A stretch of DNA of 64,000 nt from Segatella copri. Its GTDB lineage: Bacteria > Bacillota_I > Bacilli_A > Erysipelotrichales > Erysipelotrichaceae. Shown here in pieces: positions 21,992 to 33,024 of this stretch (the first letter of the stretch is position 1; every line of letters starts with the position of its first letter). The position numbers and the translations under genes are program-made. The stretch lies in the NCBI GenBank assembly GCA_963654445.1, contig CAVKAP010000039.1:5208-69207 (forward strand). The letters are read 5' to 3'. The notes under the pieces are model-generated. The model made no database searches. It saw nothing but the letters and a program-made list of their open reading frames with translations, and was not told the DNA's origin.

Positions 21992-23293
21992 TCATAGATC
22001 ATCAAGATATCGCTTTAAGATATTCTCTTGATAAGCAATGCGATTGTTGCTGTCTTGCATCTGTTCAATCACTTTGCACAAAGCTTCCTGTTTAATTTGT
22101 TTTAACATCTGCATTCTTTTTTCTGATGCTCTTTGATTTGAAAGAGCTGTCTTATAGTCATCAATGTCATAATGCCATAGATGTAAAGACGGATATCGAT
22201 TGACTAAACGTTGGGCAATCAATAAACCTTCCGGATCCATATCTCCACTATAGTACATAGGTATTTTTGCCTTCTGAATAAAATCCAATAGAAGATAAGC
22301 ACTATAATTCAATTGCCCATTGGTACAAATCAAAGAAATCGTTGTTTTCTTTTTTTCTTTCATTGCTTTTAATAAGGCCTGAAAAATGGATGGATTTTCT
22401 ACAATATAGACCTTTTGACAAGAAACAATGCCTTGAATGGATAATAAATTATCCATGTTGACATTCAAAGCTTCCCATGAATCATAAAAGCCTGCCCATC
22501 CCTTATGTACTTGTCCATTTTGATCAATGGCCTTTAAACGAGCAATACTACAATAATTACTAATTCCATCCTGATATAAGCCAGCCTGGTATAAAATCTC
22601 ATTTTCTTCTAAACTGGTATTCTCACTTTTCTTTATTCCTAATAAGAAAAGAATTCCTTGAATAAGACTATAACGATAAAAGCTTCCCTTATCAAAGGCA
22701 TGTGGATTTTTCGTATAGGTACTGGCAAAAACAGATAAGTTCATTTTTTTCTTTTCCCATACGGGTAAGGCATTTAAGGCTTGCATCACTTCCGATAATT
22801 GTTTTAAGCATCTATTTTTGTCCGTCTGCATCTCTTGAATAAAGCGAATATATGGCCCTTCTCGATGGTAGTAAACACTTTGAATCCAATCAGCGGACTT
22901 CCCTTCCAGTTTCATTAAAGTATCAAAAAAGGTGTGAATTTCTTTTTCTTTTTTATCCTTTATATCCTTTTTTGTCGCAATAGAAGAGCCAAAATAGAGC
23001 ATCAATACGTCATTAAAGTCACATTCTGCATAACGGGTTTCTCTAAGTGCTTTTTTTAGCTTTGTATAGGTGATTTTAACTTCCTTTTTACCAAAATAAT
23101 CTTCTCCCATCAAATTCTCTATATCACTTTGATTTTGCGTATTTATCGGTAAAAGGATTGAGCCCTTACAGGTTCCATATTTAATATATTGTTGCTTCCA
23201 TAAGTCCATAAACTGATGAAAGTGACGCTCCTTTAAGTACCTACAAAGCTCTTGATTAGCCCAACAATCGTTTTGTTTTTCCATTCCATTCAT
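21992..23293 (-). CDS. jetD: Wadjet JetD, Toprim nuclease (TIGR02679-like)
   Basis: PHAFD, IVENPS, LICTNGQ, YYSGDMDPEGLLIA and YQE motifs; last gene of a 4-gene SMC operon; exact start uncertain. Confidence 0.85.
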   Translation of the reverse strand: MNGMEKQNDCWANQELCRYLKERHFHQFMDLWKQQYIKYGTCKGSILLPINTQNQSDIENLMGEDYFGKKEVKITYTKLKKALRETRYAECDFNDVLMLYFGSSIATKKDIKDKKEKEIHTFFDTLMKLEGKSADWIQSVYYHREGPYIRFIQEMQTDKNRCLKQLSEVMQALNALPVWEKKKMNLSVFASTYTKNPHAFDKGSFYRYSLIQGILFLLGIKKSENTSLEENEILYQAGLYQDGISNYCSIARLKAIDQNGQVHKGWAGFYDSWEALNVNMDNLLSIQGIVSCQKVYIVENPSIFQALLKAMKEKKKTTISLICTNGQLNYSAYLLLDFIQKAKIPMYYSGDMDPEGLLIAQRLVNRYPSLHLWHYDIDDYKTALSNQRASEKRMQMLKQIKQEALCKVIEQMQDSNNRIAYQENILKRYLDDL

Positions 23294-26200
23294 AACGAAT
23301 CACCGTAATATAATGTGCATTGTTTGGACGATACAATTCATAAATAGCCAATGATGGAACATTTGGATAATCACCCCATAGAACCTGCGAATTCATAATA
23401 TAATCAAAGCCAAAGTTCTTAATCAATCCAAACATCATATCAATATTGTTTTCATCCACACCGGCAAAGGCTTCATCTAAGGCAATCAATAAAGGTGCAT
23501 CTTCATTGGCATAAGAGAATTTAGCCGCTACAGCCGAGAACAAAGGAATATACATTGACATAGCCTTTTCCCCACCACTAAAGACAAAGAAACGACGATC
23601 GGTTAATTCTTTTTTCTTTTCGTTGGTCTTTTCAAATAAAATCGTAAAATCAAACCATGTTCGATAGTCTAATAAATCTCTCATAATTTGATGAAAGCTT
23701 TGGGTATGATTGGGGTCCTCTGCCATTGTACGTGCAGAATGAATCTTGGATCGAAAATGCTTCGACAACAAGTCAAAATCGCTTTCTTTTAATAGCTTTA
23801 AATCCTTTTCAAGCAATTTGACGAGGTTTTCAGAGCTCAATTCATCGTCATTTTCTGCTTTTTTCGATTTCCATTGTAGACTTAATTTTAAGCTACTGCT
23901 CGTATTCATCGATTTCATATATCGATTCATCGTTTCAATCCAACGCTTACTTGAACGAATGTGCGCACGAATCTTTCTTGAAATCGTATTAACTAAGATG
24001 TCTTCGATTAAGATTCGATCCTGATTATCTAAAAGAAGATTTTGTTGGGCAATATCCTCTTCAAGATGATCAATCAATTCCATATAAGGAATTTGTTTTC
24101 CCTTATATCTTGCTTTTAAATCCAATCGTGAAATTCCTTCTTGTTCGCTATCAAAAAGTGTCACAAAATGAATGCCATATTCCTGCAAATACCCACGATT
24201 GGTATAAAAGGAGGTTTGAAAATCATTGCCTAAGCTCTCCTTTGATTTTAAATTTGGATAGCTTCGATGAATGAGCGTTTCTAGTTCCTTCAAATCCATT
24301 GCTTCTTTTGTGACATAGCCTAATCGAAGCTCCTGATCAAAGATTTCCTTTTGTCTTTGAACAAAGACAGCTTGATTTTCGGCTTGAGCTTCTCTTTCTT
24401 CGATTTCTTTACGACACCGTGCTTGAATGCTTTCTTGTTGTCCTTGTCGCTTTGATAAATCAAATAAAAGATCAGGAATCTCATTTAAACGCTTCGATAA
24501 GGTATTTAATCGTTCTTTGATATCGGCATAGCCCTTTTCATTTAATAAGGCTTCTTTTTGCGCAATCATTTTTTGGTATTGCTCAACCTGAAGTTCACAT
24601 TTTTTCAATTCATAACGAATGGAATCTAAATCATCAATTAAATCCTCATATTTTGATTGAAAGGTCTGTAGAAGCTCTAAGTTGGTTCGATATTTCATAT
24701 GCTTCTTATCTAACTCCAATAAAATCAAACGATATTGAGTAAAGGTCTCTTTTCTTAGGTAGAAATATTCCTTTGTATTTTGAATCTCTAAACGATCAGA
24801 AATAGCGGTAATCTCTTTTTTCAAAACAAATAGCTTTTCTTGGTAGGTCTTCATTCGCTTTTTATGTTGAGCCAATGCATCCATATGCTGCTTCTGTTTT
24901 AATTCCGCTTTTTCTAGATCCTGCTTTGCCACCTCTAAATCACGTTGTCCTGGATAAGAAGTCGCTTCTTTTTCTAATTGACTTAGCTTTGCCTTTAAAT
25001 CAGAAATTTCTTGTTGAATAGCTTGTTTTTCCGCTTGGAGTTCATTTAATTGTTTTTCAAAATCCTCAATTTTCTTTTTACGATAGGCTTGTCGTGCTTT
25101 TTCACCAATAAAGGTTGCCTTTGCCAACTGATTGACCTTAGCTGTTATCCATCCATTTTGATATCCCTTTTCAAAAAGTTCAATGGTCGTCTTTTCAAAT
25201 CCAAAGGCTTGGCTCATCTCATTTAGATTGAAGGAATCGTCAATGAAATAAACCTTTAAATCAGAAAGCTTTTTCTCAGTGAATAAGAACTTTTCTTCCA
25301 TATCCTCAGACAAGCTCTTTAAAGTCTCTTGATCCTTCTTTTCAACGAGAAGTGCATTTAATAAGCCCAATTGTTTAAATTGTTCTTCAATCACATTTCT
25401 TTTTTCAAAAGAAAGTGCGGTATCAAAATCTAAGAATTGATAAAGGGGTTGCGCATGAATGCCCTTGTCCTTTAAGAATTTTCTTGTCTTGGCCTGTCCC
25501 TCACTTAATTCAAAGATTGGTTCCTTTAAATCTTTCCAATAGGCCAATTGACTTTCTACATCCTGAATCTTTTCACTTACTTCTTTATATTTTGTCTTGT
25601 GATGGGACATCTGTTCAATGATTTGACTCTCATGCCAAACATATTGTTTATGGATAATTTGTTCGATGATGGAATAGGCACTATCCTCTAAATAATTGGA
25701 TAGAACCCCTTGAATTTCTTTCATCATCACTGCATTGAGCTTTAATTGATGATTTCCCTTTTCCCATAAATAGAACTTTTCTTGGTATTCTTCTTGCAAG
25801 GCAGCAAATTGTTGCTCATATTGTTCAATTTCTTTTTCAATCTCTTCTAACAAGGCTTCTTCCTTTGAAGCATCATTTTGAATATGAGCCAATAAGTCCT
25901 TTTGCTGGTCCATTTCTCTAAAAAGAGAAATGCCCTTTTCAAGCTCTTTTAATTCAGTAGAAATCTTATTTAGCGTATAGCTAAAATCATAGTCTTGATC
26001 CATCTTTGTTAAGAATTCATTTTTTAATAAAATGTGCTCATCAAATTGTAGATTTTCATTCAATTCATCCAATTCTTTAAACAATTGATGAATTTCATCC
26101 TGACATGCATCTCTTTTTTCCTCTTGTTCTTTGACCTTGATTTTTGTATCTATACAAAGATTATCTTTATTCTTCTCTTGTTGCACTTTATTTTGAAGGT

Positions 26201-27239
26201 GTTTTTTTTCTTGTTCTAAATCTGCCTTATAGCGTTGAACATCCTTGGCCACCTGCAATAAATCACTTTGTGTCAAATCACTCAATTCATCTTCTACAAG
26301 CTTTTTTTCACTTTTTAGAGCTTCAGTTTCATTTAAGATCTTTTCAATTTGTCTAGAGGCTTGCTCTTTTGATTTTTTTAATTGTTTGATCTTTTCTTCA
26401 ATTTCTTGGTATTGATTTTCCTCTTTTCGATAGGCCTGTAATTTTTTCGATAAGGACGCAAAATTATATTGTTGGTAAATGCCTTTGATGCTGATTGCTG
26501 CCTGTAGGCTTTTCTTCATAATTTCCAATTGATTTTGAATTTCATCCATATTGGATAAGGCTTCGGTCAACGGACGCAAATCCTCTTCACTTAATGGCTG
26601 TAAGGAATTGGATAACAAGCGATTGATCATAGAAGGCTTTAAAGAATTGGATAGCTTTGGTGTCCTGACCTGTACTAAAAGATTGATGGCTTCCTTATAA
26701 TCATCCATGGAAGGAAATTGGAAGAGGGCTTTATTGACCCGTTGCATATATTCTCTTTGTGTTTCAATCAATTGATCGCCAATTTGGTTTTTCAACATTT
26801 GTTTGGTGATGGCAAGATGATTATGATCCATCAATTGAATATCTTGATTGATTCTTCGATTGTCTTCAATCACAAAATACCAGGTCTGCATGGCCTTGTT
26901 TTTACGAGCACGCATACCAATTCCAACAGTTTTATAGATATCAGAATCTTCTCTTTTAAATTCTAAATAAAGATAGGCAATGCGATCATTTCGATCCGAT
27001 TCTTCATCAATCAGATAGGATTCCATCTTACGAGCCTTGGTTCCAAAAGCATCCAATCGTTCACTATTCTTATTTCCATCTAGCAATAAAGGAATAAAAC
27101 TTTGCATGGTCACAGATTTTCCACTTCCATTGCTTCCTCTTAATAAAAGATGGCCATCCTTAAAGGAAAACACTTCATTTGTGTAATACCAAAAATCAAC
27201 TAGGCCCATGCGATTCATATGCCATTTACTTGTCAACAA
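23256..27239 (-). CDS. jetC: Wadjet JetC, SMC/MukB-like ATPase (TIGR02680-like)
   Basis: Walker A GSNGSGKS, long coiled coils, signature FSGGEKA, Walker B IALDEAFAGVD. Confidence 0.9.
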   Translation of the reverse strand: MLTSKWHMNRMGLVDFWYYTNEVFSFKDGHLLLRGSNGSGKSVTMQSFIPLLLDGNKNSERLDAFGTKARKMESYLIDEESDRNDRIAYLYLEFKREDSDIYKTVGIGMRARKNKAMQTWYFVIEDNRRINQDIQLMDHNHLAITKQMLKNQIGDQLIETQREYMQRVNKALFQFPSMDDYKEAINLLVQVRTPKLSNSLKPSMINRLLSNSLQPLSEEDLRPLTEALSNMDEIQNQLEIMKKSLQAAISIKGIYQQYNFASLSKKLQAYRKEENQYQEIEEKIKQLKKSKEQASRQIEKILNETEALKSEKKLVEDELSDLTQSDLLQVAKDVQRYKADLEQEKKHLQNKVQQEKNKDNLCIDTKIKVKEQEEKRDACQDEIHQLFKELDELNENLQFDEHILLKNEFLTKMDQDYDFSYTLNKISTELKELEKGISLFREMDQQKDLLAHIQNDASKEEALLEEIEKEIEQYEQQFAALQEEYQEKFYLWEKGNHQLKLNAVMMKEIQGVLSNYLEDSAYSIIEQIIHKQYVWHESQIIEQMSHHKTKYKEVSEKIQDVESQLAYWKDLKEPIFELSEGQAKTRKFLKDKGIHAQPLYQFLDFDTALSFEKRNVIEEQFKQLGLLNALLVEKKDQETLKSLSEDMEEKFLFTEKKLSDLKVYFIDDSFNLNEMSQAFGFEKTTIELFEKGYQNGWITAKVNQLAKATFIGEKARQAYRKKKIEDFEKQLNELQAEKQAIQQEISDLKAKLSQLEKEATSYPGQRDLEVAKQDLEKAELKQKQHMDALAQHKKRMKTYQEKLFVLKKEITAISDRLEIQNTKEYFYLRKETFTQYRLILLELDKKHMKYRTNLELLQTFQSKYEDLIDDLDSIRYELKKCELQVEQYQKMIAQKEALLNEKGYADIKERLNTLSKRLNEIPDLLFDLSKRQGQQESIQARCRKEIEEREAQAENQAVFVQRQKEIFDQELRLGYVTKEAMDLKELETLIHRSYPNLKSKESLGNDFQTSFYTNRGYLQEYGIHFVTLFDSEQEGISRLDLKARYKGKQIPYMELIDHLEEDIAQQNLLLDNQDRILIEDILVNTISRKIRAHIRSSKRWIETMNRYMKSMNTSSSLKLSLQWKSKKAENDDELSSENLVKLLEKDLKLLKESDFDLLSKHFRSKIHSARTMAEDPNHTQSFHQIMRDLLDYRTWFDFTILFEKTNEKKKELTDRRFFVFSGGEKAMSMYIPLFSAVAAKFSYANEDAPLLIALDEAFAGVDENNIDMMFGLIKNFGFDYIMNSQVLWGDYPNVPSLAIYELYRPNNAHYITVIRYEWNGKTKRLLG

Positions 27240-28358
27240 TTACTTCACCTCCAAATCATAAAATCCACCAATTTTTCCACAGATTGGGAAAATTTGAATT
27301 TGGTTTTCTTCTTGTGCAATAAAGCCATTTCTTAACATGGTTGCCTTCACTTCATCACAAAGAACATCAAGATCAAGCTCTTGATATTTCTTAGGTAAAA
27401 AGGGCAAACATTCCTTAAACCAACGTTTCATCCATCGATTACATTGTTGATCATCAATTTGAGCAACCTCTTGTAAAGAAATAGAGCACTGCTTATTTTT
27501 TATCTTTTTTGTTATCTGATACATAAAGACTAAAATCAAATCCGAAAGAGCATTATTCGAAGGAAAAATATGCTTCAAAGAACAATCTTCAAACAAATTA
27601 ATATAAGCACTCGACTTATAGACCTGCAATTCACAAGAGCAATAGCTTTGAAAATCCTTTTCGATTTGATTTCGATAATGCCGAATGTAGACAAAATCCT
27701 CGTCATTTTCATCCTTTCGATAGACTCCACAGGAAAGTAGAAGTCTTCGATAAACACGCTGTCTTCTTACAATACCACGGTCTTCTTCCATGGCATACCA
27801 TTCCCCTTTTTCAATGCTTTCCTGTGAATCATACTCCATGATATCTCGAGAAAAGCTTCGTAAAATATAACGGGAATAGCCCGTATTTTCATAAAGAACT
27901 TCGGTATTTTCATCTTTGGCAAATTGATCTTCATTTCCATCTGTACATTCTATAATATGAATAGACATACAATATTGAAGAACACGAACCAAACGCCTTC
28001 TGGTTAAGTGCTTGGTCCAATCAATTTCTTCATTGCCAAATTGCATTTGAATGAATTCCGTTAAGGAAGAAAGAACAAATTGCTCCTCTCTTTCTTTATC
28101 CTCTAAAAACATCAATATATAACAATACATTTGATACTCTTCAATTGATTGAAATTCTTGAATTCCCATCCATTCTTCGACAAAACCAGGTATTTTTTCC
28201 AATTTGATTAAATAGGGCGTTAAAATCAACATGTAGCCAAATTTCTCTTGAAAGATCTTTCGGACCTCTTTAATGGAATCCTTAACTTTCAAATAGAGCT
28301 CTGGATCTTCACTACGTAAAATCCATTTGCGATTTAATAACTCTTCAAAAGCACTCAT
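27240..28358 (-). CDS. jetB: Wadjet JetB (TIGR02678-like)
   Basis: Position between jetA and jetC; LEKIP, FVLSSLTE and RVYRRLL motifs. Confidence 0.8.
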   Translation of the reverse strand: MSAFEELLNRKWILRSEDPELYLKVKDSIKEVRKIFQEKFGYMLILTPYLIKLEKIPGFVEEWMGIQEFQSIEEYQMYCYILMFLEDKEREEQFVLSSLTEFIQMQFGNEEIDWTKHLTRRRLVRVLQYCMSIHIIECTDGNEDQFAKDENTEVLYENTGYSRYILRSFSRDIMEYDSQESIEKGEWYAMEEDRGIVRRQRVYRRLLLSCGVYRKDENDEDFVYIRHYRNQIEKDFQSYCSCELQVYKSSAYINLFEDCSLKHIFPSNNALSDLILVFMYQITKKIKNKQCSISLQEVAQIDDQQCNRWMKRWFKECLPFLPKKYQELDLDVLCDEVKATMLRNGFIAQEENQIQIFPICGKIGGFYDLEVK

Positions 28359-28360
28359 AG

Positions 28361-29836
28361 CTACTCTCCTTTAAAACGAATACGAAAGCTTGGCATCGTA
28401 ATCACACCATCTTCACAGGGAACCTGAATGGTTTCTAAATTCGTTGTTTCAATTTCAAAGACTTGCCCTGCATCGGTTTTTGAACATCTTTTTTCATTTG
28501 ATAAGCCTTTTGATAACCAAGAAAATAAAATCTTTCGAGATTGTGCATCCAACATTTCTATTTTCGAAAAATCGACTACACCATCTTTAATATAGGACTG
28601 CAGCTTTTCTGTTTGAAGACGCTGCTTTTCTAGAATTTCAAGACGTTGTTGTTCAATTTCAAAATTATAATCCATGGCTGCTTTTCTTTTGGTTTTCTTT
28701 GTCGCAATGCGTGTTCGCGCTTCTAAAGAAAGTGTTGTTGGCTCTTCTTCATATACGCCACCATCAATCCAATCACTTTCTCTAGGCTTACATTCCTTCA
28801 AATGAATCGGATGATCAACCCCAAAAAGAACAGCACTTAATTTGTGGGCATCGCTTAAGGCCTGGCATTGTTTAAATAAAGAAGCTATGTGACGATACTC
28901 TTCAATTTTATTGGCTCCTTGATTTTGCATTTCACCAATTTGTTGGGCATATCTTGTGATTTTTCGAATCATTTCATTGGTGATATCAGACATTCGATTT
29001 ACTTCACTTTGCCCATCACTTCCAACAAACCAATCATAAATGCTCTTCCAACGTCCAAGCCATAAATCATAGATTTCATCTTCTTTAATTTGTACATCCA
29101 AACGAGGAATGGTCATTTCATATGCCACGGCCTTTTTTAGAATCCCTTCAATCTTCTCTAAAGGAATATCCTTGATGTAATCTTCAAGGATCATTGCTTG
29201 TTCTTGTAATCCCTTCACAAAGTTTCTTAAATACATGATGATCTTCTCTTTATAGATTAAAAAGGATTGCGTTTTCATCATTTCTTCGGCTTTTGAACTA
29301 TTCAAGGTCCGTAGATAATCTTGGTAGTTTCGATTCAATCGAATAAAATTCTCATTTAAATCTGTCCACCAAAGATTGACCTTTTCATCACTTTCTTCAT
29401 ACAAGCTTGGAATTTGAAGAATCAATGCATGAATACGTTCTAATAGAGTTGGCTCGAGTGAAGCTCCCTCCACTTCAATATTTTCTAGACGAAGCGTCAT
29501 TCGTTCAATTTCAATTGTATATTCACTTAATTGATAACGAAATTTACGATTACGAAATTCTTCAATGGTGCTTACCTTTGAACTATCTTGCATCGCAATT
29601 AAATTCTTCCATTCCATTAAGGCCTGTAAATCCGATTGACACATTTCAATCGTATAATCTGGAAATTGATGGGTTTGTTGGAGAGCCTCATAGACATCTT
29701 CTTTATATAACCAATAATTTATTTTTTCATATTGCTCAAAAAAGTAACGAATAATAACTCGATATCGTTCTACATTTTCAGCTCGAAGATAATTGACTTC
29801 GCTAATTGGCTTCATTAATTTTTCTGTTATTTTCAT
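28361..29836 (-). CDS. jetA: Wadjet JetA, kleisin-like (TIGR02677-like)
   Basis: YRVIIRYF, DLQALMEWKNL...TIEEF...YQLS; first gene of the operon. Confidence 0.82.
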   Translation of the reverse strand: MKITEKLMKPISEVNYLRAENVERYRVIIRYFFEQYEKINYWLYKEDVYEALQQTHQFPDYTIEMCQSDLQALMEWKNLIAMQDSSKVSTIEEFRNRKFRYQLSEYTIEIERMTLRLENIEVEGASLEPTLLERIHALILQIPSLYEESDEKVNLWWTDLNENFIRLNRNYQDYLRTLNSSKAEEMMKTQSFLIYKEKIIMYLRNFVKGLQEQAMILEDYIKDIPLEKIEGILKKAVAYEMTIPRLDVQIKEDEIYDLWLGRWKSIYDWFVGSDGQSEVNRMSDITNEMIRKITRYAQQIGEMQNQGANKIEEYRHIASLFKQCQALSDAHKLSAVLFGVDHPIHLKECKPRESDWIDGGVYEEEPTTLSLEARTRIATKKTKRKAAMDYNFEIEQQRLEILEKQRLQTEKLQSYIKDGVVDFSKIEMLDAQSRKILFSWLSKGLSNEKRCSKTDAGQVFEIETTNLETIQVPCEDGVITMPSFRIRFKGE

Positions 29837-29878
29837 ACCTTTTATTATACCTATCTTTTAAGAGAATAAACAACAAAA

Positions 29879-29896
29879 AGGACTCCTAAGAGTCCT
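29879..29896 (-). terminator. Intrinsic terminator between the coiled-coil gene and jetA
   Basis: AGGACTC-CTAA-GAGTCCT followed by T tract on the minus strand. Confidence 0.7.
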
Positions 29897-30431
29897 ATGC
29901 GTTGTTTAACATTCCTGTATTGAGAAAATTTACATTCTGTAGCTTTTCTACTCGTTTTTGAATTTTATCTTTTCTTCGATGCTTTAAACCTTCTTCAATT
30001 TTATTCAGTGCAAGCTTTTTTTCATTTTTCATCGCTTCTGCCATATTTAATTCAGCACGTTTAAATCCAATCAAGTTTTGTTTCAAGAAAGCTTCATATT
30101 CTAATTGATCAATTTCATGATGTAAACGACGAATTTGGCAAACCACTTGTGCAATATCTTCACGTGAGCCTCTTCCTTTCGCTTCTAGATTTTCTAATTC
30201 TTGTCGCTTAATGATAATTCTTTGTTCAGCTTCATGATAAATATCTTCCACATCCTTTAAATTTATTAAAGCTTCTTGATAATTTTCTTCTGCTTCTACT
30301 AATTCTTCATACGCAATGGAATATGCGCTCTTTTCTTCTAAATATTTTAAATGTCTTTCTTTTGCCAATCTTCTTAATTTTTGATGCTTTTCTCTAACTT
30401 CTTCAAAATAGTCATGTACGTTTTCAATCAT
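29895..30431 (-). CDS. Hypothetical charged coiled-coil protein
   Basis: E/K/R-rich heptad-like sequence; GAGAGG RBS, own promoter and terminator. Confidence 0.7.
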   Translation of the reverse strand: MIENVHDYFEEVREKHQKLRRLAKERHLKYLEEKSAYSIAYEELVEAEENYQEALINLKDVEDIYHEAEQRIIIKRQELENLEAKGRGSREDIAQVVCQIRRLHHEIDQLEYEAFLKQNLIGFKRAELNMAEAMKNEKKLALNKIEEGLKHRRKDKIQKRVEKLQNVNFLNTGMLNNA

Positions 30432-30490
30432 AAGATTGTCCTCTCTTTCTATCCCTATAAAAGGATTTTTTAGATGTTCTTGTTAATATT

Positions 30491-30543
30491 TTTATATCAT
30501 AGGGATAGATGAAAGTCAATTTAAAATTATCGTTTTATGATAA
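30491..30543 (-). promoter_or_regulatory. Sigma-A promoter (TTGACT-17-TATAAA) with TTATCATAAAACGATAA box 7 bp upstream of -35
   Basis: Third copy of the shared architecture. Confidence 0.7.
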
Positions 30544-30685
30544 TTGTTTATTTTATTTAATTAATCTATTTACGTATACCGTTATTCAATTCATTTTAGA
30601 ATTATAATCACTAGACAAAAAAGAGTCTTCGATACACTTGATGAATTTCTTTAGCTATATATTTTCTTCAAGATTCAGACTTCGA

Positions 30686-30714
30686 TTGACAAATAGCTAA
30701 ATTTCACTTAAAAT
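30686..30714 (+). promoter_or_regulatory. Near-consensus sigma-A promoter facing the 3' end of the Abi gene
   Basis: TTGACA (30686-30691), 17 bp, TAAAAT (30709-30714). Confidence 0.7.
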
Positions 30715-30720
30715 TCAAAT

Positions 30721-30778
30721 ATAAATTGACCTAGGGTCGGAAGAAAGGCTATACCAAATTGGTATAGCCTTTTTCTTT
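30721..30778 (+). ncRNA. Candidate small RNA of about 55-60 nt (putative antitoxin of the Abi protein)
   Basis: Bounded by the promoter above and a 13-bp perfect hairpin (30744-30772) with a T tract; contains mini-hairpin GACC-TAG-GGTC; no ORF. Confidence 0.55.
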
Positions 30779-31570
30779 ACTAAGATAATTAATCATTGAA
30801 ACAAACCTTTTCTTGTTCGTACTATCTCGTAACGCTTTTGTTTTTGGATTATAGAAACGAATTAATATTTCTAGACTATTACAATGCATTACACAATTAC
30901 GAACTGCAATCAAAGTGAACATTTTCACAATAAAATCAGGTGTTTTATCAACTCCAAAATCTATACCTTCTTTTTTACAATCTTTGAAGATTAAATCTTG
31001 CTCCTTATAATCTAAACCACAGAAAATAGTTAATATTTGACCTAACGACATTCTATCAAAGAAACAATATATATCATGATATTTAGAAACATTCATCTCC
31101 ATTTTCTTGATTTGATTATTCATATGTTCAATACGTTTCAAACTATACTTCTGATTTTTAGGAATCCTTAATCTAATCAAAGCTAAAAATTGATAAATAT
31201 CATTTTCTTCTTCAAATGTATAGGTAGTTAAAACTCGATATGAAAAAATCGATTTAAATATGGTTTCAAACGAAATAATGTTTTTCGATATAATAGGATA
31301 TTTTTTTCGTTCACTATTATACAATTCATAGTATTCACTAAATTCAACTTCTCTTTCGTATACATGATTTCCATTTTCTTTAATCACTTCTTTTTTCTTA
31401 TCTAATTTTGCAAATCGATGCTTATATGGGGAAATGATATTTATATAGTTATATCTAAATAATATTTCTTTTGCATCCTTTTCATTAATAATATTAAAGC
31501 GGATTCTTTTATTTTCTTTTAAATATTCAATTTGCTCCTCTATCGTTTTTGCGGGTTTATATACAATCAT
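30749..31570 (-). CDS. Abi_2 (AbiD/AbiF-like) HEPN RNase abortive-infection protein
   Basis: N-terminal KTIEEQIEYL...YNYINI, MSLGQ and HEPN R-x4-H motif RNCVMH; visibly more AT-rich than its neighbours. Confidence 0.8.
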   Translation of the reverse strand: MIVYKPAKTIEEQIEYLKENKRIRFNIINEKDAKEILFRYNYINIISPYKHRFAKLDKKKEVIKENGNHVYEREVEFSEYYELYNSERKKYPIISKNIISFETIFKSIFSYRVLTTYTFEEENDIYQFLALIRLRIPKNQKYSLKRIEHMNNQIKKMEMNVSKYHDIYCFFDRMSLGQILTIFCGLDYKEQDLIFKDCKKEGIDFGVDKTPDFIVKMFTLIAVRNCVMHCNSLEILIRFYNPKTKALRDSTNKKRFVSMINYLSKEKGYTNLV

Positions 31571-31816
31571 ATTGTCCTCCCAACTATTCCATCAAATCCA
31601 TATTTTGTCTTTCTACTTTAATTATATGAATGAACTCAAAATATTCATAAAATCATTAGAAACTTTACACCATATAAATAAGAAAATCACATACACACTT
31701 TTTGAAGAAAAATATTGCTTTGTAACAAGAGAAAAAGTTCACCTAATAAATATCAATGAGCTTGAAAGAGTCTTTATCGAACTTCACTATAGAGAAATAA
31801 CACAATAGAATGAGCA

Positions 31817-31843
31817 AATAGGAAGTGAAAATCACTTCCTATT
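31817..31843. terminator. Hairpin after the malic enzyme gene
   Basis: AATAGGAAGTGA-AAA-TCACTTCCTATT perfect 12-bp stem. Confidence 0.7.
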
Positions 31844-31860
31844 CTATTAACAAACAATCT

Positions 31861-33024
31861 TTATTTTCTTGTGACACCGGTTTTTACTGCTGCTTTGGCA
31901 ACCGCTTCGGCAACCACATCGGCAACATTTGGATCTAAGGCCGACACAATAATATGTTCCGCATCTAAAATATCATCAGTAATCATCGAGCTGATTGCAT
32001 AAACGGCTGCTTCCTTCATTGCATCATTAATGCAAGTAGCGCCTGCTTTTAAAGCCCCCTTAAAGATACCAGGGAAGGCCAATACATTGTTGATCTGATT
32101 TGGATGATCACTTCGTCCAGTTCCGACAATATAAGCCCCTGCTTCTTTGGCTTGATCGGGTTCAATTTCGGGAATTGGATTGGCCATTGGGAAAACAATC
32201 GCTTTTTCATTCATGGAAGCAATCATTTCTTTAGAAACAATGTGTCCAGCACTAACACCAATGAATACATCGGCTCCAACTAATGCATCCGCTAAGCTTC
32301 CTTGTACGTTTTCTTTATTTAATTGATCAATTAAGCTTCTTTGTCCACTGGTTAAATCCATATCGGCTTGTAGGATGCCTTGTCTATCCACTAAAATAAC
32401 ATTTCCTAATCCGATTTTTAAAATCAAGGTTGCAATCGCAACTCCAGCACTTCCTGCACCATTGATTACAATCGTTGGATTTTCTTTTCCGACTAATTTT
32501 AGGGCATTCACTAAAGCGGCACTGACGACAATAGCTGTTCCATGTTGATCATCATGAAAAACAGGTATGTTCATTTTTTCTTGTAGTCTTTTTTCTACCT
32601 CAAAACAACGTGGAGCGGCAATATCTTCTAGATTAATTCCCCCAAAGCTAGGCTCTAAACTAGAAATAATCTGAACGAGCTCATCGGTATCTTGGGTATT
32701 TAAACACAATGGAATGGCATCCACATCACCTAAGGCTTTAAATAAAACACATTTTCCTTCCATAACAGGCATTCCTGCTTCTGGACCAATATTTCCTAAG
32801 CCTAGAATGGCACTTCCATCACTGATGACGGCAACCGTATGTCCTCTTCCGGTATACACATAGCTATCTTCCGGATTTTCTTTGATTTCAAGACAAGGCG
32901 CCGCAACGCCTGGTGTATAAGCTAAAGATAAATCATCTCTTGTTTCAATTTTCATTTTAGGAACGGTTTCTAATTTTCCATTCCATTCTTTATGTAATCT
33001 CAATGCTTCTTTTGCGTAATCCAT
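31861..33024 (-). CDS. NAD(P)-dependent malic enzyme
   Basis: AYTPGVA, PVMEGK, INLEDI, FHDDQHGTAI, GAGSAG and NQINNVLAFPG. Confidence 0.95.
   Translation of the reverse strand: MDYAKEALRLHKEWNGKLETVPKMKIETRDDLSLAYTPGVAAPCLEIKENPEDSYVYTGRGHTVAVISDGSAILGLGNIGPEAGMPVMEGKCVLFKALGDVDAIPLCLNTQDTDELVQIISSLEPSFGGINLEDIAAPRCFEVEKRLQEKMNIPVFHDDQHGTAIVVSAALVNALKLVGKENPTIVINGAGSAGVAIATLILKIGLGNVILVDRQGILQADMDLTSGQRSLIDQLNKENVQGSLADALVGADVFIGVSAGHIVSKEMIASMNEKAIVFPMANPIPEIEPDQAKEAGAYIVGTGRSDHPNQINNVLAFPGIFKGALKAGATCINDAMKEAAVYAISSMITDDILDAEHIIVSALDPNVADVVAEAVAKAAVKTGVTRK

Follow-up and report, generated by a model that had tools for sequence, protein, structure and literature searches.

The locus analyzed here lies in a window of 64,000 nucleotides, by which we mean the whole stretch of DNA under study, and combines a minus-strand gene for a candidate toxin with a short promoter-RNA-terminator unit that faces it from the plus strand. 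Its features are as follows.

30586..31860, no strand assigned: variable cassette that contains the genes for toxin and RNA, flanked by the malic-enzyme gene and by orf178 / the Wadjet II block
30749..31570, minus strand: candidate AbiF/Abi_2-family HEPN RNase toxin, 273 aa (PADLOC, PHROG, family Pfam and fold match)
31576-31580: RBS GGAGG of the toxin gene
30884..30901, minus strand: HEPN catalytic motif R224-N225-x-x-x-H229 (RNCVMH)
30686..30714, plus strand: sigma-70/SigA-type promoter of the RNA, TTGACA-17-TAAAAT, 11/12 consensus positions, conserved spacing (-35 box TTGACA at 30686-30691, -10 box TAAAAT at 30709-30714)
30721..30778, plus strand: small non-coding RNA of about 58 nt, candidate antitoxin (conservation, covariation)
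30721..30727, plus strand: single-stranded purine-rich leader of 7 nt, family consensus GYARAUD
30728..30738, plus strand: hairpin P1, 4 bp with a variable loop, opened by an invariant G
30740..30775, plus strand: hairpin P2 / intrinsic terminator, with a 13-bp stem (30744-30756/30760-30772) and basal pairs G30740-C30775 and A30741-U30774 beneath a small internal loop, whose register is a reading of the alignment

A genome of the same genus (G346) aligns with the window on both sides of positions 30586-31860 and carries an unrelated block of 7.7 kb in their place, so we regard the segment as a variable defence cassette. Just downstream of it lies a complete Wadjet type II operon, jetABCD (21992-29836, minus strand; PADLOC JetA2, JetB2, JetC2 and JetD2), preceded ahead of jetA by an ORF for a coiled-coil protein of 178 aa (29895-30431, minus strand) that matches no family and is also found in G346. 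The promoter-RBS region of this ORF is bracketed by a perfect 11-bp inverted repeat (30448-30458 / 30499-30509), which may be an operator.

The 273-aa protein belongs to the AbiF/Abi_2 family and its model has the AbiF fold, bearing out the first-pass annotation of this DNA, which had called it Abi_2/AbiF-like. PADLOC identifies it as AbiD (E 5.8e-12), PHROG 2158, an abortive-infection family, matches it (E 2.2e-12), and PF07751 is precomputed for it in the protein collection. Its close relatives in Catenibacterium and Coprobacillus are named 'Abi family protein' by one source, and 37 of 65 members of the toxin family match Pfam Abi_2. Direct Pfam and NCBIfam scans of the protein itself gave no match, and the Abi_2 label therefore rests on PADLOC, PHROG, the precomputed PF07751, the relatives and the fold. 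With an AlphaFold model of the toxin (pLDDT 93.5), Foldseek returned 8vz6_A as its top match (E 1.6e-3, TM 0.52), and VIA-align likewise ranked 8VZ6, the structure of PbAbiF bound to its ncRNA, first (Z 12.8, rmsd 4.4, 226 aligned residues; next Z 4.5). Sequence identity to PbAbiF is only 12-15%, and a search of the PDB with the toxin sequence found no match.

The HEPN motif RNCVMH was also read correctly at the outset, and its residues R224, N225 and H229 are unchanged across 52 homologs. Residues 227-231 fall inside the interface of a predicted homodimer that scored 0.88 against 0.47 for the best control, with runs agreeing to at least 96% and pLDDT of at least 90; of the solved pairs 20 of 30 attain this mark, as does 1 of 23 single chains, and the result may stem from likeness to the solved complex 8VZ6. 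Taken together, the predicted fold and the predicted dimer point to a dimeric HEPN protein, for which RNase activity would be expected by analogy with its AbiF relatives. The toxin family numbers 91 representatives at E 1e-30 in a 50%-identity library, and its named members belong to Erysipelotrichaceae, Coprobacillaceae and similar Bacillota, many of them from gut metagenomes. No protein relative was found in the INPHARED phage or PLSDB plasmid collections, and comparison of the homologous loci revealed no conserved element or promoter position upstream of the toxin gene.

The facing unit has the anatomy that the first-pass annotation had described. TTGACA-17-TAAAAT is the top promoter-like site in 29500-32600, and such sites are frequent in the AT-rich DNA of the locus (21 found, against 15.4 +/- 3.7 in shuffles). 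The predicted RNA begins 6 nt past the -10 box and ends in the U tract; as a 58-nt molecule it folds at -24.8 kcal/mol (z -5.6), with none of 200 shuffles equally stable, and the minus strand of the same stretch likewise folds (z -6.0). The mini-hairpin GACC-UAG-GGUC noted earlier is P1, and the 13-bp terminator noted over the last codons and stop of the toxin gene is the stem of P2, a perfect inverted repeat, within an RNA that shares 30 nt with the toxin gene, namely its final 9 codons and its TAG stop. A terminator scan of the region did not list the P2 hairpin. No repeat array is present in 29840-30790 or 31540-31900, and the RNA is a single unit.

We gathered 123 homologous loci, many of them near-duplicates. 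At the 3′ end of the gene, nearly all carry the same unit on the opposite strand: a promoter is followed by a purine-rich leader of 7 nt, a hairpin of 4 bp, a short linker of purines, and a long stem that runs into a U tract. A covariance model of the RNA matched 107 of the 122 loci other than the window's own, 66 of 80 loci outside the training set, and 79 of 83 loci (many redundant) in which the ORF is near-full and the sequence continues for at least 100 nt beyond it. Every match lay downstream of the toxin gene on the opposite strand and none upstream, and the RNA is kept down to about 31% identity of the toxin protein. The proposal of an RNA gene had been made to depend on conservation 3′ of homologous genes, which these counts display, and covariance analysis of the same regions had been suggested as a check.

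That analysis drew on an alignment of 43 distinct RNAs, a family of about 50-65 nt. Both hairpins covary: 94.5% of cells are paired and 168 double changes were recorded, these being counts over related sequences and not independent events; none of 500 shuffles equals the observation, and slid controls reach 41-55% paired. The second and third pairs of P1 show 16 and 18 double changes with no broken pair in the 43 RNAs, and its first pair is GC in 32 and GU in 11. Double changes occur at 11 of the 13 pairs of P2, whose basal G-C is retained in 41 of 43. The G, A, A and U positions of the leader are at least 90% conserved, and the loops and upper stem vary freely. G-U pairs exceed A-C pairs by 52:4, in favour of the RNA strand, and the better fold lies on that strand in 39 of 43 cases. 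A promoter matching at least 9/12 positions at the same distance from the RNA was found in 33 of 48 non-redundant loci, against 9 of 923 control positions. What decisively takes the unit beyond chance is that it is conserved and covaries among homologs, and on this comparative evidence the promoter, RNA and terminator facing the toxin make up a genuine, conserved gene for an RNA. The RNA had been called unannotated, and an Rfam search agreed, giving no match at gathering score in the window and none at E up to 10 in 30450-31870, the abiF motif (RF03085) included. The RF03085 model is narrow, since it also missed 20 other Abi_2 loci of the same order.

Four of the 83 loci were missed by the model. 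In one the C-terminus of the protein is replaced (L018) and in another a variant RNA is visible by eye (L072); the remaining two, L117 and L119, encode an intact RNCICH motif and have no RNA adjacent to the gene and no significant copy elsewhere in their own genomes. These two loci, whose proteins differ at the otherwise conserved residues H69, D172 and N231, count against a strict dependence of the toxin on the RNA. Both sit on a long, compositionally odd branch, and L117 adjoins a tRNA-like gene. Distant members in three other families (L183-L185) display by eye a convergent promoter and a variant RNA, with only L183 scored by the model.

The extent to which the RNA reaches into the coding sequence ranges from -7 to +30 nt and is at most 4 nt in 18 of 48 loci, a comparison by which the overlap is dispensable. 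A sister clade of Abi_2 proteins (clade B; 335-370 aa, RNxxNHYE), related to the clade of the toxin (clade A; hhalign 99.3%), has the same convergent downstream layout with a different RNA sequence, composed of a GACGAAG leader, a 6-bp P1 and a terminator. Eleven of 16 loci examined (L215-L222 and L228-L230; for example L218:2511-2567, minus strand) carry a GACGAAG-type RNA, three have intermediate or related-looking variants by eye and two have none; the end of the RNA lies between -10 and about +100 nt from the stop. P1 of this second family also covaries (98.3% paired, 20 double changes, 10 sequences). The RNAs of L225 and L226 look intermediate between the clade A and clade B families, and no clade B relative was found in viral contigs. 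In a midpoint-rooted tree of 81 proteins, from a sample biased to relatives of the query, the groups with convergent RNAs (51 rows) split from the rest with support 98/95, a result consistent with one origin of the convergent layout.

Copies of the RNA also occur away from the end of a toxin gene. At L081, L110 and L114 a diverged second copy stands farther from the gene, and by eye each of these copies has a -10-like box in front of it. When 151 genomes of the order were searched with the RNA model, 27 places turned up in 22 genomes, 7 of these places being known linked loci; on inspection, the other 20 comprised 3 linked copies, 1 tandem copy, 5 plain terminators and 11 orphans. The 5 terminators (L161, L162, L164, L165 and L170) were low-scoring matches and were left out of the orphan count. 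A promoter of at least 8/12 accompanies 7 of the 11 orphans, and remnants of a deleted toxin gene lie beside 4. None of five orphan genomes tested, one of them single-contig and 98% complete, encodes a clade A protein; three have no Abi_2 match and two have distant ones only. For a toxin-antitoxin pair one would expect just this sequence of events, with the toxin lost and the RNA retained. Within one genus, three genomes (L144, L145 and L166) hold an orphan RNA with an intact promoter at what seems to be the same locus, beside a surface-protein gene, and in one of the three a second, toxin-linked copy lies at a distance of 7.6 kb.

Pattern scans of viral contigs returned seven stretches, namely three Abi-linked copies, one orphan and three that were rejected as chance matches inside phage genes. 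The orphan, a single case (L172:1467-1528, minus strand; 50.7 bits), adjoins an endolysin gene and has a weak promoter, and the viral record that carries it (36 kb, 79% complete) has no Abi match. This copy is possibly a decoy or a relic.

Other Abi_2 clades in the genomes studied have upstream co-directional RNAs, labeled as such by eye. Promoter-motif-terminator RNAs, some in tandem pairs, precede the gene in three sets of loci (L125, L136, L137, L140 and L143; L126, L134, L186 and L192; L130, L138 and L139), and no such RNA in loci L124-L143 was matched in Rfam at gathering score. At L190, L195 and L198, from table 4 genomes, a related motif with its own promoter lies by eye downstream on the same strand, present as two tandem motifs at L190 and L198. 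Since upstream, same-strand downstream and convergent layouts all occur, Abi_2 RNAs are labile in position, which is what one would expect if they act in trans. A further clade with the motif RNLCAHED was present in 16 of 16 genomes sampled from one family, and in the five of its loci that were viewed (L200, L202, L204, L205 and L207) no flanking RNA was obvious; the clade is possibly domesticated.

Comparison with known systems places the locus close to AbiF. According to the sources covered, known AbiF RNAs neutralise the toxin in trans by direct binding (bioRxiv 10.1101/2025.04.15.648962; PMC12737573, PMC13064643), the ncRNA is located upstream of abiF (PMC13064643), and AbiF is a proposed ancestor of Cas13 (PMC12737573, PMC13064643, bioRxiv 10.1101/2025.04.15.648962). 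PbAbiF-AbiFr from Prevotellaceae (Zilberzwige-Tal et al., Cell 2025; PDB 8VZ6) shares with our pair the fold, the HEPN RxxxxH motif, the homodimer predicted here and a cognate short structured RNA; despite these likenesses, the proteins have the low identity given above, and the described position of AbiFr, upstream, sets it apart from our RNA, downstream on the opposite strand. The RNA RCd22 of the Clostridioides difficile phi027 prophage is described as a 5′ leader of 98-132 nt with two abiF motifs, co-transcribed with its toxin, that attenuates AbiF-Cd in cis and also binds AbiF (Saunier et al., bioRxiv 10.1101/2025.04.15.648962 = PMC12373285); the words 'antisense' and 'opposite' are absent from the text covered. 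From what is described there, both systems have an Abi_2-family HEPN toxin and an RNA with its own SigA promoter, intrinsic terminator and hairpin motifs, whereas the facing RNA is about 58 nt long, single-unit and convergent, with no match to the abiF motif RF03085. The lactococcal AbiD / AbiD1 / AbiF group, as far as the source portrays it (PMC13064643), resembles our pair in the AbiD match by PADLOC and in its two-component protein-plus-RNA logic, and differs in having a conserved element upstream, of which none was seen at our toxin.

The remaining comparisons are more distant, even where layouts or logic coincide. In ToxIN / AbiQ (type III), the toxin is preceded by ToxI, an array of pseudoknots in tandem repeat. 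An RNA antitoxin for an RNase toxin is common to ToxIN and our system; the toxin fold differs and an upstream ToxI-type array is absent at our locus. CRISPR-Cas13 and Cas13e differ in that our locus has a single RNA, with variable parts that are paired, and neither a repeat-spacer array nor a free variable guide. The txpA/RatA pair of B. subtilis is a type I system with a convergent, 3′-overlapping antitoxin, and such systems pair small membrane-peptide toxins with RNA-pairing antitoxins; type I toxins are typically small hydrophobic peptides. Head-to-head genes that overlap at the 3′ end of the toxin are common to txpA/RatA and our locus, where the toxin is instead a 273-aa protein, soluble and HEPN-fold according to its model, and where the complementarity of 30 nt with the coding sequence shrinks to at most 4 nt in the 18 of 48 loci already mentioned, the overlap being dispensable.

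Among the features of AbiF type III systems, a conserved cognate structured ncRNA adjoins the toxin gene in 79 of 83 intact loci, and an upstream co-directional ncRNA with an attenuating terminator is absent. The system is filed as an AbiF variant because the upstream leader and the RF03085 match are both lacking, and it probably works like an AbiF type III pair. Within the literature covered, no downstream or convergent AbiF RNA is described; relative to the descriptions found, the new elements are the RNA family and the convergent downstream layout for AbiF toxin-RNA pairs.

We consider it likely that the locus encodes a two-part, type III-like toxin-antitoxin or abortive-infection module, a member of the AbiF family whose layout has been rearranged. 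Its minus-strand gene would supply a dimeric HEPN RNase and the facing plus-strand gene, whose anatomy is known by comparison, a short two-hairpin RNA from its own strong promoter. This RNA would use its conserved leader, P1 and the lowest part of P2 to bind the toxin, with one RNA per toxin monomer as in PbAbiF, and keep the RNase off. It is probably present in abundance, occupying the dimer and so blocking RNase action; by analogy with type III systems, if host transcription failed, for example upon phage infection or loss of the cassette, the RNA would run down and the freed RNase would bring about growth arrest. Lying outside the 5′ leader of the toxin, the facing RNA is not placed to attenuate its transcription in the manner of RCd22. 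The hairpin common to both genes may instead terminate the two transcripts and have an antisense or collision effect in second place, a weaker part of the scheme that is compatible with it because the convergent orientation is so stable.

The sequence evidence favours a trans-acting, protein-binding antitoxin over a purely antisense one, because the overlap is dispensable, extra copies occur in tandem and orphans persist after deletion of the toxin. The orientation nevertheless calls for comment: it is convergent throughout clades A and B, and a purely trans-acting RNA would not need it, which suggests a cis role or simple inheritance. A further reading is that the antitoxin has a dual mode, binding the HEPN RNase while controlling the toxin mRNA from the other strand. 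Its free-standing copies, which are the chromosomal orphans whose promoters are intact, the diverged tandem copies and the one beside a phage endolysin gene, would then act as decoys against incoming AbiF cassettes or as phage RNA anti-defence; we hold this to be a minority possibility. A phage pseudo-ToxI that mimics ToxI, reportedly described by Blower in 2012, is a precedent for a phage-borne decoy RNA.

A type I-like cis-antisense element, in which the RNA or read-through from its strong promoter pairs with the 3′ end of the toxin mRNA or disturbs its transcription, while the hairpin serves mostly to terminate in both directions and the protein need not be bound, appears unlikely. The strict convergence of clades A and B is what such an element would display, the 3′-overlap layout is typical of Bacillus type I systems, and the RNA would be complementary to the mRNA 3′ end if the mRNA ran through the hairpin, the minus strand of which folds as well. 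Set against this are the small or absent overlap in many loci, the tandem and orphan copies, the selection of structure on the RNA strand (52:4), and a toxin (RNase) family known for protein-binding RNA antitoxins. The conserved unpaired leader and the invariant G and C, moreover, go beyond the needs of pairing. The conserved single-stranded positions lie outside the coding overlap, and protein recognition fits them better than antisense pairing, which tolerates co-mutation (PMC5737381).

Still less probable is an RNA that serves as a bound cofactor, sensor or primitive guide licensing or directing the RNase, a step on the path from AbiF to Cas13. The proposed ancestry of Cas13 and a P2 stem with a small internal loop, freely variable loops and a freely variable upper stem would suit such a role; the variable parts, however, are paired or only 3-8 nt long, leaving no free guide segment, and AbiF is without RNA-targeting specificity according to a review (PMC12948488). 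The order of loss fits an inhibitor instead, since the RNA persists after loss of the toxin and the reverse is rarely seen, the clear cases of intact toxin without RNA being L117, L119 and the contig-end locus L010. That the element is a gene-end terminator or DNA-level feature with a coincidental promoter is highly improbable: promoter-like sites are common in the DNA of the locus and the covariance model picks up plain terminators at low scores (5 of the 20 places examined), but the promoter spacing is fixed (33/48 loci, against 9/923 controls), P1 covaries outside the terminator, the pairs are biased to the RNA strand and orphans persist with promoters.

The orphan and tandem copies are the most intriguing extra of the system, and they make ideas of anti-addiction and phage decoys testable for an RNA antitoxin in gut Bacillota. 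Were the dual-mode or decoy reading true, Abi_2 antitoxin RNAs would be mobile, collectable modules, and as such a precedent in nature for how a single antitoxin RNA could become an array on the way to Cas13. AbiF-RNA pairs are proposed ancestors of Cas13, and in the literature covered only two of them are named as characterised, each having its leader RNA upstream. The locus analyzed here establishes a new RNA family, whose partner is a compact toxin of 273 aa, together with a related family in a sister clade. Uncoupling of the RNA from the toxin leader makes protein binding separable from transcription attenuation in tests, and the natural RNA variants permit tests of cognate versus non-cognate specificity.
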